IMG/VR virus record: IMGVR_UViG_3300035150_000119
Span: 1-54,570 of that record
Source of the DNA: a virus
Lineage: Duplodnaviria; Caudoviricetes
Direction: 5' to 3' (one strand)
Length of the DNA: 54,570 bases
The position numbers and the translations under genes were made by a program. This document shows, in pieces, positions 1-7,288 of this stretch (the first letter of the stretch is position 1; each line of letters opens with the position of its first letter). The notes beneath the pieces are model-generated. The model was not told where the DNA came from, did no database searches, and was given only the letters and a program-made list of their open reading frames with translations.

Positions 1-63
1 GTAATATTCAACTGCCCTAGGGCATGCGTCTATTTTTCTAAGATAATTTACGTTTAGTTTCAT
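1..63 (-). CDS. 5' fragment of ankyrin-protein paralog (MKLNVNYLRKIDACPRAVEYY...), runs off the window
   Basis: ATG at 63 overlaps the TGA of 60..455; translation matches the N-terminus of the 60..455 and 6884..7288 proteins. Confidence 0.85.
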   Translation of the reverse strand, partial: MKLNVNYLRKIDACPRAVEYY

Positions 64-455
64 TTAGCCCCCTTGCTTCTCAGTAATTCTACAATATCAA
101 GATAGCCACAATCACTCGCATACATCAATGCCGTCCTGCCTCCATCATTACGAGCATTCACATCAGCACCCGCATCAATTAATAGTCTAACAATATCAAT
201 ATGGCCAAAGCGACTCGCCCATATCAATGCTGTATAGCCAAAATTATCCCTGATATTCACATCAGCACCATTGTTAATTAGATGTTGAATAACATCAATA
301 TCAGCATTACCCATGAACCACACTTGCCAGTTAATTTTAGCCTCTTTAAATGCCGATATTACATCGACTTCTTTGTTGCCGTATTTATTCCTGTAATATT
401 CAATAGCCTTATAACATGCGCATATTTTTATAAGATAGTTAATGTTTAGTTTCAT
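60..455 (-). CDS. Ankyrin repeat protein with short N-terminal 'KLNINYL..GAC' domain
   Basis: GADVN-x4-GxTAL-x2-A-x3-GHxDIVxLL repeats. Confidence 0.9.
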   Translation of the reverse strand: MKLNINYLIKICACYKAIEYYRNKYGNKEVDVISAFKEAKINWQVWFMGNADIDVIQHLINNGADVNIRDNFGYTALIWASRFGHIDIVRLLIDAGADVNARNDGGRTALMYASDCGYLDIVELLRSKGAK

Positions 456-844
456 TCCTTCGCCCCCTTAATTTCCGCTTGTAGAGAAAATCCACCATAA
501 TATCCATTATGTTCATTATGATTAACTATCTGAAAACTGCCTTTATCGGTGGTTATTTCAAGGAATTGACATTCATGTATCCAAATTTTATCTTCTTCTT
601 CATAATAATCACAATCTTTTAATTCTATGTTTGTTAATATACAATCATAGAAATCGGCTAAATTATCATCAGTTGTCATATATCTAGATTCACAACAAGT
701 TTGTCCATCATCCCAGAGACTCAATATTGATCCATCTTCAAAATAAATGTTTAAAGTATCGTCAATAAAATCACCATCTTGATTAATTTTAATAATCTTT
801 TTATTTAATGATGATTTTATTGCATTACTAGTTTCTTTATTCAT
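452..844 (-). CDS. Conserved-looking phage hypothetical protein
   Basis: Q-T-CCE and HNEHNGYYGG motifs typical of small phage proteins; RBS AAGGAG. Confidence 0.75.
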   Translation of the reverse strand: MNKETSNAIKSSLNKKIIKINQDGDFIDDTLNIYFEDGSILSLWDDGQTCCESRYMTTDDNLADFYDCILTNIELKDCDYYEEEDKIWIHECQFLEITTDKGSFQIVNHNEHNGYYGGFSLQAEIKGAKE

Positions 845-1207
845 AATTATTCTCCTTTTAATTTATTCATTTTTCCCCTTTCCCTCCTTCTTGCAAATAA
901 TATAAATAATTCCTCAATAAATTTCATTTCCGTCTCTCTTTTTTTCATCTCCTCTCTTATTTGTTTTTCGTAATTTTTTATCATAATTACCTCCAAATGA
1001 AAAAGATGGACAGAGATAGACCGGATCCCAGCTCTGTCCATAATAATTATTTTTTTTTCATGTTAGACCTCCTATCATATTCGTTAATTATTTTTGTCAT
1101 GTTATTGATGTATTCGTTCGCTTTTCTGAAGTGCTCCAGAAAATCACCCATATACCTTTTTGCATCATCTCTATAATCCTGTGGCGTTTTTGTTTTTTCC
1201 CAAGAAT

Positions 1208-1465
1208 TCATGTTAGACCTCCTATATTATATACTTGCTTAATTACAGAAGCAAGTAGATATTCTTGAGTTCGTAACTTTTTTTCTAATATTTTTTTACG
1301 TTGTTGAATCTCTCCTAAATTCTCACTGCCAAAATATAATCTATCGCTTATAGATTGAATTTCGTCTTTTAATTTTATTTCTTCCCGAATCAATTCTACT
1401 ATTTTGGCATTTTCATTAATTATTATTTCTCTTAATTGTTTAAGATCATATCCAATCATATTCAC
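1208..1465 (-). CDS. Hypothetical coiled-coil protein
   Basis: ORF with GGAGGTG RBS, heptad-like composition. Confidence 0.65.
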   Translation of the reverse strand: MNMIGYDLKQLREIIINENAKIVELIREEIKLKDEIQSISDRLYFGSENLGEIQQRKKILEKKLRTQEYLLASVIKQVYNIGGLT

Positions 1466-1522
1466 CTCCGTTAAAATGTTAAGGTTTTAATTATGCCCTC
1501 CGAAAAGGGCATCTTCAAAACC

Positions 1523-1651
1523 TTAGTACAGGGATTTCCCTTGTAATGCAGGATGTTCATTATAGAGATAATCCTGCAAATTATTAATCTGTTTTTGCAG
1601 ATCAATGTAAAGCTGTTTTCTATCGGCTTCAAAAATTTCTAAGTCTAGCAT
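1523..1651 (-). CDS. Small hypothetical protein (42 aa, MLDLEIFEAD...)
   Basis: TAAGGAG RBS 6 nt before ATG; below ORF-track cutoff. Confidence 0.6.
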   Translation of the reverse strand: MLDLEIFEADRKQLYIDLQKQINNLQDYLYNEHPALQGKSLY

Positions 1652-1847
1652 TTAAATCTCCTTAATATATAAAAAGCAGGCGTGTTTTTTGGATAGTTCG
1701 CATTAAGTCTGACATCACCAGACACCCGCTGATATTCATAATTAGAACGAGGGATATTTCACCCTCGTCCTCTAAGGAGATCAGACCGACAACGTCTAAT
1801 CTGATTTCCTATTTTATTTTTGCAAAATAAACTTATCAGAGCGAAAA

Positions 1848-2048
1848 TTATATAGATTTACCTTTTAATGTTAATTCAAGACAACATGTATTAGCATTAA
1901 AATATATAATATTCTTTTCTTTTAATTTTATTATTGCTTTTTCGACATTCTTTTTTCTATTATAATTATACTTATTTTTATAATATAACACATTAAACTT
2001 TTTGTACCCTCTTATAACATCAATTACTAAATTTTCTGTTTTTGTCAT
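1848..2048 (-). CDS. Small basic hypothetical protein (cassette gene; winged-helix-like ending)
   Basis: Shared start cassette AAGGAGGTCAGCG-ATGAC. Confidence 0.7.
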   Translation of the reverse strand: MTKTENLVIDVIRGYKKFNVLYYKNKYNYNRKKNVEKAIIKLKEKNIIYFNANTCCLELTLKGKSI

Positions 2049-2063
2049 CGCTGACCTCCTTAA

Positions 2064-2121
2064 TATTGTACTCTGCTTTTCTCAATCCGGACTTGTAACC
2101 GTCTATGGTAGCATTACAGTG
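2064..2121 (-). ncRNA. Twister ribozyme, type P1 (copy C, weakened P1)
   Basis: Core UAA-UGCU-AC..CGG-U-UAC-AA-GU-CCG..AGCA-GA-GUA identical to the copy at 3524-3581; P1 has mismatches. Confidence 0.75.
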
Positions 2122-2149
2122 CAGGGGTGTAATTCCCCCTGCATTAAGA

Positions 2150-2755
2150 TTATTCAGTTTTTAACGGAATAATTTTTATTCCGTTACCTCTTCCGCCACC
2201 CCGTGCGATACCAATGAGGCATTTTGTCTCGTTATTAAAATAATATCCATCTTTGACAATATAATTATCGCCTTCTCCTGTCCATTTAAACGATACTTTA
2301 TCTCGAAGTATTTTTGTTTTTTTATTTTCGGCTGAAATATAACAGCCGTTTTTTCCATATTTTTCTTCCCAATATTGAGATTTGGATATTCCATATTTTA
2401 ATACCCAGTTGGAAAAAACTTTTGTTTCTTCCCAAGAGTATTTTTTTTGAATAGGTATTGAAATATCCAAAATTTTTGGAGCCCTTTCATACTCTTTTTC
2501 AAATTCTTTTTTCGCTCCTTCAAAGAGATACCCAGTAGCTCTTTCATTTGCATTGTAAGTACTATGTGTCCATCCTGTTAATATAAGATGGATTCCTTGT
2601 ACTTTGTACAAAAGATACATAAATGCTTCTGCCCAAAATCCTTTGGAACTATATTCTTGATGGATGCTGTCCCATTGTCTAGCATCCCATGAAGAAAAAT
2701 ATAATGCGATTTCTTCTCCTTCAAAATTTAAATTTTTTTCTTGTTGTTTTGTCAT
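2150..2755 (-). CDS. Hypothetical protein (cassette gene, start revised to MTKQQEK)
   Basis: Shared RBS/start cassette at 2751-2774. Confidence 0.75.
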   Translation of the reverse strand: MTKQQEKNLNFEGEEIALYFSSWDARQWDSIHQEYSSKGFWAEAFMYLLYKVQGIHLILTGWTHSTYNANERATGYLFEGAKKEFEKEYERAPKILDISIPIQKKYSWEETKVFSNWVLKYGISKSQYWEEKYGKNGCYISAENKKTKILRDKVSFKWTGEGDNYIVKDGYYFNNETKCLIGIARGGGRGNGIKIIPLKTE

Positions 2756-2770
2756 CGCTGACCTCCTTAA

Positions 2771-2827
2771 TATTGTACTCTGCATTTCTCAACTTGGCTT
2801 GTAACAAGTTATAGCTGCATTACAATA
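2771..2827 (-). ncRNA. Twister ribozyme, type P1 (copy B)
   Basis: P1 UAUUG/CAAUA; UAA; P2 UGCA/UGCA; T2 GC/GC; P4 AACUUG/CAAGUU; T1 UAC/GUA; GA before T1'. Confidence 0.9.
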
Positions 2828-2862
2828 GCTCGATATTTCTACCGAGCTTATATCAGAGTGAA

Positions 2863-3177
2863 TTATCTGCCTAAAAATTCTTTTATTTTTTTTACAGTTT
2901 CTTTTACTATTTCAAAATTATACATTTCGAATCCCCTATCACTACCATCATTATTTTTTACAAAAACTTCAACATTGCCACTTGGGAAGGATTTCTCATC
3001 ACCGTCTTGATTTTCAACAATAATTGTATTTCTGTCTTGACTTAATATTATGCTCTCATAACAATCAATATCTTCTTCATCAATTTTAGGAAGATAATTT
3101 AACATTACATTTTTAGGAATTAATGCATCTCCGCATTCTTCCCTACTGTTTATATAATACATCTTTTCTTTAGTCAT
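2863..3177 (-). CDS. Acidic hypothetical protein (cassette gene)
   Basis: Shared RBS/start cassette. Confidence 0.75.
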   Translation of the reverse strand: MTKEKMYYINSREECGDALIPKNVMLNYLPKIDEEDIDCYESIILSQDRNTIIVENQDGDEKSFPSGNVEVFVKNNDGSDRGFEMYNFEIVKETVKKIKEFLGR

Positions 3178-3190
3178 CGCTGACCTCCTT

Positions 3191-3248
3191 AATATTTACT
3201 GACGCCCGAAGGCGTTTAGTCGTTCCCGACTCATCAGAGCGAATTATT
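3191..3248 (-). ncRNA. Type I hammerhead-ribozyme-like element with G12->U change
   Basis: UUCGCU-CUGAUGA-GUCG(GGAA)CGAC-UAAA-CGCC(UUCG)GGCG-UC-AGUAAA; all core positions present except GAAA->UAAA. Confidence 0.65.
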
Positions 3249-3507
3249 TTCCTATGGTTTCATCTAATAACATTGATTCTTCAATAAGTTCCCTTTGTAT
3301 TTCTTTTGCAAATACAAATATTTTCTGCTCCCATTTTTGATCATCTTTTGCTAATATGTCAAATTTATCATCTGCAATGCTTTCAAGTTTCTGATAATTC
3401 TCAGTCATGCAAGCATCTGCAAGGTTATTACCATTTGTGCTTAACCATCTTCTATTAAGCCATTCGTTATTTAATACTTCATTTAAAAATCTTTCTTTGT
3501 TTGTCAT
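3244..3507 (-). CDS. Hypothetical protein (cassette gene)
   Basis: RBS AAGGAGGTC, MT start. Confidence 0.75.
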   Translation of the reverse strand: MTNKERFLNEVLNNEWLNRRWLSTNGNNLADACMTENYQKLESIADDKFDILAKDDQKWEQKIFVFAKEIQRELIEESMLLDETIGK

Positions 3508-3523
3508 ATCATGACCTCCTTAA

Positions 3524-3581
3524 TATTGTACTCTGCTTTTCTCAATCCGGACTTGTAACCGTCTATGGTAGCATTACAATA
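3524..3581 (-). ncRNA. Twister ribozyme, type P1 (copy A)
   Basis: P1 UAUUG/CAAUA; UAA; P2 UGCU/AGCA; T2 AC/GU; P4 CGG/CCG; T1 UAC/GUA. Confidence 0.88.
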
Positions 3582-3615
3582 GCTCGGTATTTCTACCGAG
3601 CATCAGAGCGATTTT

Positions 3616-3798
3616 TTACAAACAACCATCCATTATTTTATCATTTGTATGTTGTAAAGCCGTATCCATATCTTCACCATAATTTTCCATATTATAAATA
3701 ACATCTTCAACAACTTCATCAAAAGACGCATCTGTGAAAGGATTTAATTCCCAATCACCGACTTCTTTTTTTATTTGTTTTTTAATTTTATTTGTCAT
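3616..3798 (-). CDS. Small acidic hypothetical protein, first gene of leftward early operon (start revised to MTNKIKK)
   Basis: Shared RBS/start cassette at 3794-3817. Confidence 0.7.
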   Translation of the reverse strand: MTNKIKKQIKKEVGDWELNPFTDASFDEVVEDVIYNMENYGEDMDTALQHTNDKIMDGCL

Positions 3799-3998
3799 CG
3801 CTGACCTCCTTAATATTAACAAACTCTAAGAGTTTGAGTAAGCCATTATTTTATAATAGCTTATTGAAAATCTTCGAGTAGCTCCGATCCCGCAGGATAA
3901 CTGGTCGTACTCCGTAGAGGCGTGCCGGCTTTTTTCGGGGTGCAACTGCGTTCAAAGTTGCTCAGGTTTCAAAAGGTTTTCCTTATCCTTATATTAAA

Positions 3999-4027
3999 AG
4001 TATATAGGATATAACAATAATTGTCAA
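3999..4027 (-). promoter_or_regulatory. Sigma70-type promoter of leftward early operon
   Basis: TTGACA-N17-TATACT. Confidence 0.8.
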
Positions 4028-4129
4028 TAATTATCTGTATTTTTTATTGCTGTTAGACTAAGCTATTGTATTTTCTATTTAACTGTTGTGCAAAAATGCT
4101 AGATTTTCGGGAAATTGTTCAAAATACCC

Positions 4130-4159
4130 TTGACATAAGACATACAAGCGTGTTACATT
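4130..4159 (+). promoter_or_regulatory. Sigma70-type promoter of rightward operon
   Basis: TTGACA-N18-TACATT with extended -10 TG. Confidence 0.6.
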
Positions 4160-4206
4160 TGTAATGAATAATTTGGGTACCTCTACTCATTATATAAGGA
4201 GTTATT

Positions 4207-4500
4207 ATGAAGAATAAGCAAATGCTTGAAAAAAAAGAATGGAGCAAATTTAGAGATACGGGACTGCTTTTATTCGTTAATTTTTTTCTTCATATTTTTG
4301 GCTGGGCAATAGCAATGGACATTGATGACGAAACAGGAAAGGTTATAGAGTGCTTTCCTGCAAGAACAAGATTTAGGGGATTCGACGAAAAATCTCAGGA
4401 TAAGGCTTATTTCCTACTGAGCGAATATATGAGAAAAAATGCTTCCGCATTATTATCAGAAGCAAGTGACGAAAATGAGTATGCGCAAAAAAAGAAATAA
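4207..4500 (+). CDS. Phage hypothetical protein
   Basis: AAGGAG RBS; W..FR..GLL..VN..LH.FGWA..PAR..FRGF pattern. Confidence 0.75.
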   Translation: MKNKQMLEKKEWSKFRDTGLLLFVNFFLHIFGWAIAMDIDDETGKVIECFPARTRFRGFDEKSQDKAYFLLSEYMRKNASALLSEASDENEYAQKKK

Positions 4501-4519
4501 AATTAAGGAGGAGAGCCCA

Positions 4520-4774
4520 ATGTTAGATTTAATTACAAAAATTAGAATACTAATTGATGTGCACAAAGACGCAATAGAAAGAGAAATGAAATATCTTGAA
4601 AATTATACGAAAAAAAAAGAATGGGTTAATGTAGGGTACACTCAATCTGTTATTGTCAAATATCAATTTCTAGTATCAACGTTAGAAAATTTTCTAATTG
4701 AAGTAGAGAATGACGTTCAAATAATGTGTGATGAGATTCAAGCAAACACAACGGAGAGAAAGCATGAGTTATGA
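4520..4774 (+). CDS. Hypothetical helical protein (start revised)
   Basis: AAGGAGG RBS before ATG 4520. Confidence 0.6.
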   Translation: MLDLITKIRILIDVHKDAIEREMKYLENYTKKKEWVNVGYTQSVIVKYQFLVSTLENFLIEVENDVQIMCDEIQANTTERKHEL

Positions 4775-5594
4775 TATTAAAAAAATAGGTGTTGATACTG
4801 AATATCAACAATATGCGTCGGTAACAACTATTACCGGGCAGATGGATAAAGATTCAAAACTATTGCAATGGGGTGTTGATCAAGCGGTTGATAATCTATT
4901 ATGCGAGGGGATGATTTTAGGTGCAAATGCAGACGGCATTAATATTTATCAAATTTTAGAATCTGATTTGGAAAAGTCACGCTATGCATGGAAAAAGACA
5001 CGTGATAAAACAGCAGATATTGGCTCTACATTACATCAATTAATCGAGACTTACATTAATATCAAATTAAGCAAAAATGACCGGCCAATGGCTTTATTTT
5101 TTGAACATGAAGTAAAAAAACATACTGAGAAACTTCAAGACATGTTTCAAAAATTTCTTGAATGGGAAAAAGAAAACGTAAAATGTTTTCTTGAATCAGA
5201 ACAAACTGTTTGCGATATTAATCTATGCATTGCAGGTACGCTCGATATTATTTTTCTTGACAAAGATGATAAAATTATCTGCGTTGACCTAAAGACATCT
5301 GATACTATCTACCGAGAACATGAGATGCAGGTAATTGCGTACAAATACATTCGCAATAGAATGCAGGGGCAATATCAAATTAAAAAAACGTCCAGTAATG
5401 TAATTCATAATTATGGGAAAATTCAAATTGATAAACCGGCAATACTACAAATCACACGACAGGCGGAATTAAAATATGTCGATAATATAAAAGATGAATC
5501 TGAAAAATTAAAATGCTTTCTTGCATTATTGACTGTTTATTATACATACGCAAAAAGACGCTTGAATAATAAGCGGGCAATAGGGCGATATTAA
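4764..5594 (+). CDS. PD-(D/E)XK family exonuclease (phage recombination nuclease)
   Basis: SVTTI, GSTLH..IE, AGTLD, DLKTS, QVIAY motifs. Confidence 0.85.
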   Translation: MSYDIKKIGVDTEYQQYASVTTITGQMDKDSKLLQWGVDQAVDNLLCEGMILGANADGINIYQILESDLEKSRYAWKKTRDKTADIGSTLHQLIETYINIKLSKNDRPMALFFEHEVKKHTEKLQDMFQKFLEWEKENVKCFLESEQTVCDINLCIAGTLDIIFLDKDDKIICVDLKTSDTIYREHEMQVIAYKYIRNRMQGQYQIKKTSSNVIHNYGKIQIDKPAILQITRQAELKYVDNIKDESEKLKCFLALLTVYYTYAKRRLNNKRAIGRY

Positions 5595-6883: not shown

Positions 6884-7288
6884 ATGAAACTAAACATTAA
6901 CTATCTTATAAAAATAGGCGCATGCTCTGAGTCTATTGAATATTATTATAATAAATACGGCGACAAGGAAGTCGATGTAATGGCTGCATATAATGAGGCT
7001 AAAATTAACTGGCAAGTGTGGTTCATGGGTAATGCTGATATTGATGTTATTCAACATCTAATTAACAATGGTGCTGATGTGAATATCAGGGATAATTTTG
7101 GCTATACCGCTTTGATATGGGCGAGTTTTTATGGCCATATTGATATTGTTAGACTATTAATTGATGCGGGTGCTGATGTGAATGCGAGTGCTAATGATGG
7201 ATGGACAGCATTAGCATGGGCGGAATGGAATAATAATACTGACATTGTAGAATTACTGAGGAAAAGAAGTAATAAAAGAGCAATATAA
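6884..7288 (+). CDS. Ankyrin repeat protein, inverted paralog of 60..455
   Basis: Ankyrin repeats; 113-nt identical core (6995-7107) with the 60..455 copy. Confidence 0.9.
   Translation: MKLNINYLIKIGACSESIEYYYNKYGDKEVDVMAAYNEAKINWQVWFMGNADIDVIQHLINNGADVNIRDNFGYTALIWASFYGHIDIVRLLIDAGADVNASANDGWTALAWAEWNNNTDIVELLRKRSNKRAI

Follow-up and report, generated by a model that had tools for sequence, protein, structure and literature searches.

Three elements that look like active type-P1 twister ribozymes, in the form that lacks stem P3, punctuate the promoter-proximal part of a leftward operon in the viral record IMGVR_UViG_3300035150_000119. (The window analysed here is the whole IMG/VR entry, a linear stretch of 54,570 bp with an estimated completeness of 64%.) All three lie between small co-oriented genes on the minus strand, with a strong hairpin directly before them and a ribosome-binding site (RBS) directly after. 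We read them as a protein-free device by which the long leftward early transcript cuts itself into pieces while it is still being made, and put the probability of this reading at roughly two in three. It builds on the folds, the covariation, the hairpins and the spacing seen in the window, and on the recurrence of the same module in other phages.

The window was searched with Rfam cmscan and the type-P1 twister model RF03160, for which the curated gathering score is 67.2 bits; matches were also reported by E-value. At gathering scores there was no Rfam match anywhere in the window. By E-value, exactly three stretches matched RF03160, each over the full length of the model and each on the minus strand, which is the coding strand here: copy A at 3524–3581 (match 3525–3580, 33.4 bits), copy B at 2771–2827 (match 2772–2826, 38.7 bits) and copy C at 2064–2121 (match 2065–2120, 29.7 bits). 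The E-values were 8e-6 (B), 2.7e-4 (A) and 3.2e-3 (C) in an 8-kb search, and 5.4e-5, 1.9e-3 and 0.022, respectively, in the entire 54.6-kb window, where these were the sole matches at E ≤ 0.05. The original prediction, made without database searches, had placed three type-P1 twister folds on the coding strand at these same places, and the Rfam check that it had proposed thus supports it. The low scores are explained by the P3 stem of the model, which is entirely deleted in all three copies. In PMC5408937, P3 is described as optional and missing in about 20% of twisters, and P1 as dispensable for cleavage.

In the alignments to RF03160, the loop nucleotides of the family are conserved (UAA at the cut, CAAG in L4, AAA, and GAG in L1). 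Departures from the consensus are found at the positions of the two pseudoknots, T1 (loop L4 with L1) and T2 (L2 with L4), where they are compensated, and at a few positions in the junctions close to the missing P3. In T1, the CC/GG pairs of the family are replaced by UA/UA, with pairing retained. Between copies A and B there are compensatory changes in P2 (UGCU/AGCA vs. UGCA/UGCA), in T2 (AC/GU vs. GC/GC) and in P4 (CGG/CCG vs. AACUUG/CAAGUU), which agrees with the covariation reported in the original prediction. Copy C adds nothing independent: it is the same as A from 2 nucleotides (nt) before the cut site onward, with 100% identity across 67 nt and the same AC/GU in T2, and the window therefore holds only two independent twister sequences. 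The minimum-energy folds of the whole spacers around copies A and B include P1, P2 and P4. Cleavage is predicted at U3576/A3575 in copy A, U2822/A2821 in copy B and U2116/A2115 in copy C.

A degenerate pattern derived from the window copies was run against IMG/VR and returned at least 118 stretches, most of which are expected by chance. At least 33 of them, representing at least 26 distinct sequences, passed a twister filter, and 20 of the 26 were aligned with the three window copies, giving 23 rows. T1 and parts of P2 and L4 were set by the pattern, and P2 was imposed by the filter, which leaves P1, P4 and one T2 pair as the unconstrained evidence for covariation. In this alignment 95.4% of the cells pair, with double changes in 10 of the 17 pairs; the covariation score was reached by 0 of 500 shuffles, and pairing fell to 18–43% when the partner registers were slid. 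Pairing was found in 87.8% of the cells for P1, 96.7% for P4 and 100% for the filter-imposed P2, while the T2 pair was GC in 16 rows, AU in 6 and unpaired in 1. A covariance model built from the 23 rows, R1, finds just the three copies in the window (copy A, on which it was partly trained, scores 68 bits) and detects additional twisters, not selected by the pattern, in the viral loci that were fetched for comparison and that cover parts of their contigs only. Six R1 hits unconstrained by the pattern have CA/UG or UG/CA in T1, where the window copies have UA/UA, so that T1 covaries too. Low-scoring R1 hits in seven loci (L102, L120, L033, L080, L041, L094 and L068) are circularly permuted twisters, in which the UAAUGC segment comes after the L1 strand and a closed P1 hairpin; an RBS follows directly in 6 of the 7.

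The Rfam model also confirmed arrays elsewhere, with 12 other phage twisters (P3 is missing from 11) that score 31–54 bits and thus fall under the cut-off. This bears on the possibility that the elements in the window are inactive relics, or serve as structured spacers only, and make no cuts. Such a reading could appeal to the scores under the cut-off, to the poor P1 of copy C and to a neighbouring hammerhead, described below, that is clearly decayed. However, the loop nucleotides are kept and the pairings compensated, the other P3-less phage twisters are likewise under the cut-off, and P1 is unnecessary for cleavage (PMC5408937), all of which makes the loss of activity a very improbable explanation. 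It also follows that routine annotation misses P3-less phage twisters, whose scores lie far under the Rfam cut-off.

Directly upstream of each twister on the minus strand lies a stable hairpin. Hairpin A (3582–3601) has 8 bp and a GAAA loop (-13.9 kcal/mol, z -4.86), and would leave a 6-nt tail after the cut; hairpin B (2827–2848) has 9 bp, also with a GAAA loop (-12.7 kcal/mol, z -3.59), and would leave a tail of 5 nt; hairpin C (2120–2143) is G+C-rich, with 8 bp (-16.7 kcal/mol, z -4.90), and would leave a tail of 4 nt. In each case 0 of 200 shuffles folded equally well. The strong hairpin that the original prediction saw ahead of each twister is thus present in all three spacers, and would cap the 3' end of the upstream fragment. 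On the other side, each of the three twisters stops 2 nt short of AAGGAGG, again as predicted (before gene 2 this motif is at 3521–3515). An RBS/start block is common to all five gene junctions of the row; its 24-nt form AATATTAAGGAGGTCAGCGATGAC, for which there was no exact match in viral contigs, is identical in four of them, and a variant follows copy A. The five cistron starts are therefore nearly identical, and the likeness reaches into codon 3. The claim that one twister stands before each RBS holds for three of the five genes with the shared block; gene 1 is preceded by a leader only, and gene 3 by the hammerhead-like relic.

We considered a switch in which cleavage activates translation, the RBS being masked by upstream sequence until the cut is made, either by P1 or by a short box, UCGCUCUGAU, that follows the preceding stop codon. 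Such masking is suggested by an overlap, in another phage locus (L062), between the 3' strand of P1 and the Shine-Dalgarno sequence (SD), and by one minimum-energy fold of spacer A, in which CUCU of the box is paired to the SD. In the window, by contrast, P1 ends 2 nt before the SD, and the modelled probability that AAGGAGG is unpaired was 0.78, 0.66 and 0.74 in the precursors against 0.55, 0.81 and 0.68 in the products (with the pseudoknots outside the model), so that there is no consistent opening upon cleavage. The pairing of the box with the SD is missing from the centroid structure, and a pairing of the box with AGCG, read by eye, has no partner in spacer A. The box was accordingly rejected as a switch acting on the SD/start region, and a translation switch of any of these kinds seems highly unlikely.

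The order of stop codon, hairpin, twister and RBS recurs in five unrelated phage contigs (L029, L062, L066, L116 and L017). Of 34 distinct twister contexts, 22 have a hairpin of ≤ -7 kcal/mol whose tail at the predicted cut measures ≤ 9 nt, compared to 74 of 324 random windows from the same loci (Fisher p 1.2e-6, or 1.6e-5 without the window's own three, at 19/31); among the 12 without such a hairpin, 8 are nearly identical and form a single family. An SD and the start of an open reading frame (ORF) of at least 40 codons lie within 30 nt of the twister 3' end in 20 of 41 contexts. Same-strand arrays were found in 5 of the 33 loci with hits of at least 40 bits: three twisters in L029, three by R1 plus one more by Rfam in L062, and two each in L066, L017 and L116. 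Direct reading of L029 and L062 showed, in each, a promoter and then small ORFs with a stop, a G+C-rich hairpin, a twister and an RBS between them. One gene in L029 matches the ArdC N-terminal family (30.4 bits, cut-off 22.6). A further locus, L105, carries on its minus strand a type II hammerhead (3021–3083; 34.9 bits, cut-off 37) and, 1.7 kb away, a twister with an extra hairpin (4804–4873); the hairpin upstream of this twister resembles hairpin C of the window.

The leftward row is preceded by a sigma-70-type promoter on the minus strand, TTGACA-17-TATACT at 4027–3999, which matches the consensus at 11 of 12 positions and is the top site within positions 1–5000; the original prediction had inferred one strong sigma70 transcript. 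From these features we infer that the row is transcribed as one unit, that the twisters cleave, that the ends are protected and that the phage benefits. The promoter would drive the leftward early operon, including all three twisters. As the transcript emerges, each twister would fold and cut itself constitutively between U and A at its own 5' edge (3576/3575, 2822/2821 and 2116/2115). The upstream piece would then end in a stable hairpin plus a tail of 4–6 nt with a 2',3'-cyclic phosphate, whereas at the start of the downstream piece a 5'-hydroxyl would be enclosed in the folded, double-pseudoknotted twister body, and the identical strong RBS/start region would follow 2 nt past that body. Three cuts would give four units of decay and translation (the leader with gene 1; genes 2 and 3; gene 4; and gene 5 with whatever follows). 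Each would be protected at its ends and would start translation in a standardised way, with no need of a processing protein. Co-transcriptional cleavage is favoured because PMC8782182 describes the pseudoknots of a twister as persisting in the 3' fragment and the 5' end of that fragment as probably buried; because pRAP, an engineered system, has the same unit order of stem-loop, twister and RBS, with the stem-loop needed to express all cistrons but the last (PMC9872166); and because clustered prophage hammerheads that flank single genes cut native transcripts of about 2 kb in vitro (PMC3088659).

Several observations weigh against this reading. All three twisters score far under the Rfam cut-off of 67.2 bits, the window offers two independent twister sequences only, and P1 of copy C is mismatched (C–A) and nearly absent. 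A ribozyme is present in only 3 of the at least 10 spacers of the leftward row, and the punctuation spans about 2 kb. The contexts counted in other phages are interrelated and were found with a pattern derived from the window, so that the counts are descriptive and prove nothing about the module. In L122, the single locus found through a 97-aa neighbour gene (48% identity), neither R1 nor Rfam found a ribozyme in 10 kb; the arrangement is thus not conserved along with its neighbourhood. Finally, RNase J1 of B. subtilis degrades the 5'-hydroxyl product of the glmS ribozyme, which means that a 5'-hydroxyl is not protective per se.

The fate of the glmS product also speaks for an alternative in which the main effect of cleavage is a shorter-lived message, either because downstream 5'-hydroxyl RNAs are exposed to a host 5'-exonuclease or because the distal genes are uncoupled; the cuts would then be a built-in timer by which early genes are shut off or graded and not stabilised. 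Ribozymes confined, as here, to the 2 kb nearest the promoter of an operon that looks early would suit a timer, and ribozyme processing could give transcripts that differ in stability or translation efficiency (PMC6765202). On the other hand, end protection is suggested by the dedicated stable hairpin right before each cut, which is enriched in other phages, and by the folded twister body that the downstream piece keeps at its start (PMC8782182), and the units of pRAP are well expressed (PMC9872166). We therefore consider a timer unlikely and retain the cutting of the transcript into protected pieces as the better account.

The spacer between genes 2 and 3 contains an element that the original prediction overlooked. 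This hammerhead-like relic (3194–3246, minus strand) scored 19.1 bits with RAGATH-1-hammerhead (cut-off 56.3) and 14.8 bits with Hammerhead_3 (cut-off 48.5). Its intact parts include the CUGAUGA core (3237–3231), stem II (GUCG/CGAC), stem III, capped by a UUCG loop, and the GUC at 3203–3201, which would place the cut of a hammerhead at 3201/3200. The centroid structure contains stems II and III; stem I is weak, and z for the whole element is -1.43. The invariant hammerhead core is given as C3 U4 G5 A6 N7 G8 A9 G12 A13 A14 A15 U16 H17 (PMC3088659); the element has a U (U3218) at the position of the invariant G12, while all other core positions fit. In a scan of viral loci that required the same stem II and left the G12 position free, G was found at this position in 34 of 34 hammerheads from 24 loci, one of which, in L145, closely resembles the relic. 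We thus read the window element, which fails the core definition of PMC3088659, as a decayed hammerhead, likely either a recently inactivated ribozyme or an assembly error. Because of the G12-to-U change, genes 2 and 3 are probably carried on one fragment, and the monocistronic mRNAs of the original prediction are too strong a claim.

Several loci of the hammerhead scan have four hammerheads in a row before ribosome-binding sites. In L126, L131 and L140, there are four near-identical hammerheads of one type each, on one strand and within about 1.8 kb; where their flanks were read, the RBS was located ~15–25 nt past the cut, making these loci hammerhead versions of the punctuated operon.

The 5' strand of stem I and the first core bases of the relic are the box UCGCUCUGAU, which stands directly after four stop codons on the minus strand (3602–3611, 3233–3242, 2852–2861 with one mismatch, and 1835–1844). 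Its presence ahead of twisters A and B suggests that hammerheads were replaced by twister modules through recombination. The box and the following hairpin were also considered as a complete hammerhead, which was ruled out because spacers A and B, read by eye, have no GAAA and stem III after the hairpin.

These traces raise the question of whether the spacers are chiefly recombination or cassette junctions, whose repeated blocks allow small accessory genes to be swapped, duplicated or deleted, with the ribozyme as a passenger. The 24-nt RBS/start block occurs in four identical copies plus a variant, copies A and C are the same over 67 nt while their upstream flanks differ, with the homology stopping 2 nt before the cut, the hammerhead 5' box ahead of two twisters implies past replacements, and the genes themselves are orphans. 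Against a passenger role, the fold is kept between A and B by compensatory changes, which indicates selection on RNA structure rather than on DNA identity, and unrelated phages have the architecture without the sequence. As the chief explanation, a junction is distinctly unlikely, more so than the timer; it is, however, compatible with self-cutting of the early transcript, and both can hold. A combined proposal, which we find doubtful but less so than either of these alternatives, is that the spacers are a natural, standardised expression cassette (hairpin, ribozyme and an identical 24-nt RBS/start block into codon 3) and at the same time a portable junction that exchanges genes and even ribozyme classes. 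The exchange is supported by the hammerhead stem I/core box before two twisters and by the G12U hammerhead in the same slot, as if the row were caught in mid-turnover from hammerhead to twister. If this were true, phages would have evolved the pRAP design, the conserved unit would be the slot and not the ribozyme class, and each accessory gene would receive the same insulated start and protected ends.

The five genes of the row, all on the minus strand, are orphans. Gene 1 (3616–3798, 60 aa) has the conserved RBS/start block ahead of it and no ribozyme; it is followed by gene 2 (3244–3507, 87 aa), gene 3 (2863–3177, 104 aa), gene 4 (2150–2755, 201 aa) and gene 5 (1848–2048, 66 aa), the last to be led by a twister. 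None of the five proteins matched a Pfam family, and a PHROGs search with all five gave a single weak match, between gene 1 and a family of unknown function (E 0.0026). For the gene 4 protein we found no relative in viral contigs, no tblastn match in isolated phages and no usable Atlas hit, and the operon DNA had no blastn match in isolated phages. The description of these genes as host-takeover or anti-defence genes therefore finds no support, and was a guess from gene position.

The window encodes tail sheath, baseplate, tape measure, major head (capsid) and portal proteins, and thus belongs to a contractile-tailed phage. For host inference, the tail sheath protein was searched against bacterial genomes, and no relative was found. 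Between the promoter and gene 1 lies a leader of ~190 nt, after which the row of co-oriented small ORFs runs leftward. The fold of the leader (3992–3795) was no better than that of shuffles (z -0.87), and a separate low-stringency Rfam scan of 3795–4045 gave no credible family (best E 0.29). A divergent unit on the plus strand, starting at 4207, encodes an exonuclease, SSB and NinB-like proteins; together with the promoter, at the left end of the window, it has the look of an early control region. On each side of this region there is one gene for a small ankyrin-repeat protein, at 60–455 and 6884–7288; such repeats are uncommon among phages. Further to the left of the five-gene row are a DUF7448 protein and an ankyrin-repeat protein.

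The 190-nt spacer after gene 5 (1645–1852, minus strand) folds better than shuffles (z -3.12). Here AUCUCCUUA and UAAGGAGAU form a 9-bp long-range helix that would mask the RBS of a 42-aa ORF (1651–1523). Enclosed by this helix are a strong hairpin (GGACGAGGG...CCCUCGUUC) and, with UUUUU after it, a stem that resembles a terminator. TTAACA-16-TATAAT, on the minus strand at 1874–1847, resembles a promoter. The element (1852–1645) belongs to no Rfam family, and an 18-nt piece of it had no exact match elsewhere; a separate low-stringency Rfam scan of 1640–1860 likewise gave no credible family (best E 0.88).

Processing of polycistronic messages by ribozymes is not a new idea, having been put forward for phage hammerheads in 2011 and for twisters in a study cited by a 2019 review, and realised in the engineered pRAP. 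The review notes that the processing of polycistronic mRNA has been suggested for twisters too and states that the purpose remains undefined (PMC6765202), and the biological role of twisters in bacteria and phages is called largely elusive (PMC6765202, PMC5408937). Our literature searches, with most subscription journals outside their coverage, found no paper that settles twister function.

The window twisters are like the P3-less members of RF03160 (PMC5408937) in the order of P1, P2 and P4, the T1 and T2 pseudoknots, the loop nucleotides and the U^A site beside P1. They differ from the RF03160 consensus in T1, which is U-A/A-U instead of two C-G pairs, and in scoring under the cut-off. The T1 variant is not new, since the twister probe of pRAP shows the same loop variant (PMC9872166).

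In their gene context, the elements resemble the prophage hammerheads described by Perreault et al. in 2011 (PMC3088659), where several self-cleaving RNAs on the coding strand stand between small phage genes and processing into single-gene or operon-length mRNAs was proposed. A layout of this type is found in the window, with three twisters and a hammerhead relic between five co-oriented ORFs behind one promoter in a tailed phage, and the gene-context figures of that paper may contain closely similar layouts. The ArdC N-terminal match in L029 parallels the anti-restriction gene that is among those flanked by hammerheads there. Unlike in those prophages, the cutter in the window is a twister, the body of which would stay on the downstream mRNA, while a separate hairpin would cap the upstream mRNA, and the one hammerhead of the row is mutated. 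There is also a likeness to the bacterial twisters cited as reference 148 in PMC6765202, which lie between genes and for which processing into transcripts of differing stability or translation efficiency was proposed.

The locus thus represents a real, tidy and testable, but ordinary example of a known arrangement, and introduces no new class of element and no new principle; the dead hammerhead in the same slot and the traces of ribozyme replacement are minor extras. As a test piece for the role of twisters, its 2.2 kb combine one promoter, two covarying twisters, a dead-hammerhead control, matched hairpins and identical ribosome-binding sites. The closest counterpart in design is pRAP (PMC9872166), which likewise repeats a unit of stem-loop, twister, RBS and ORF and gives every cistron the same 5' untranslated region. 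Whereas pRAP is engineered, driven by T7 and used in E. coli, the phage version is natural, contains two twister variants and a dead hammerhead, and extends over part of its operon only.

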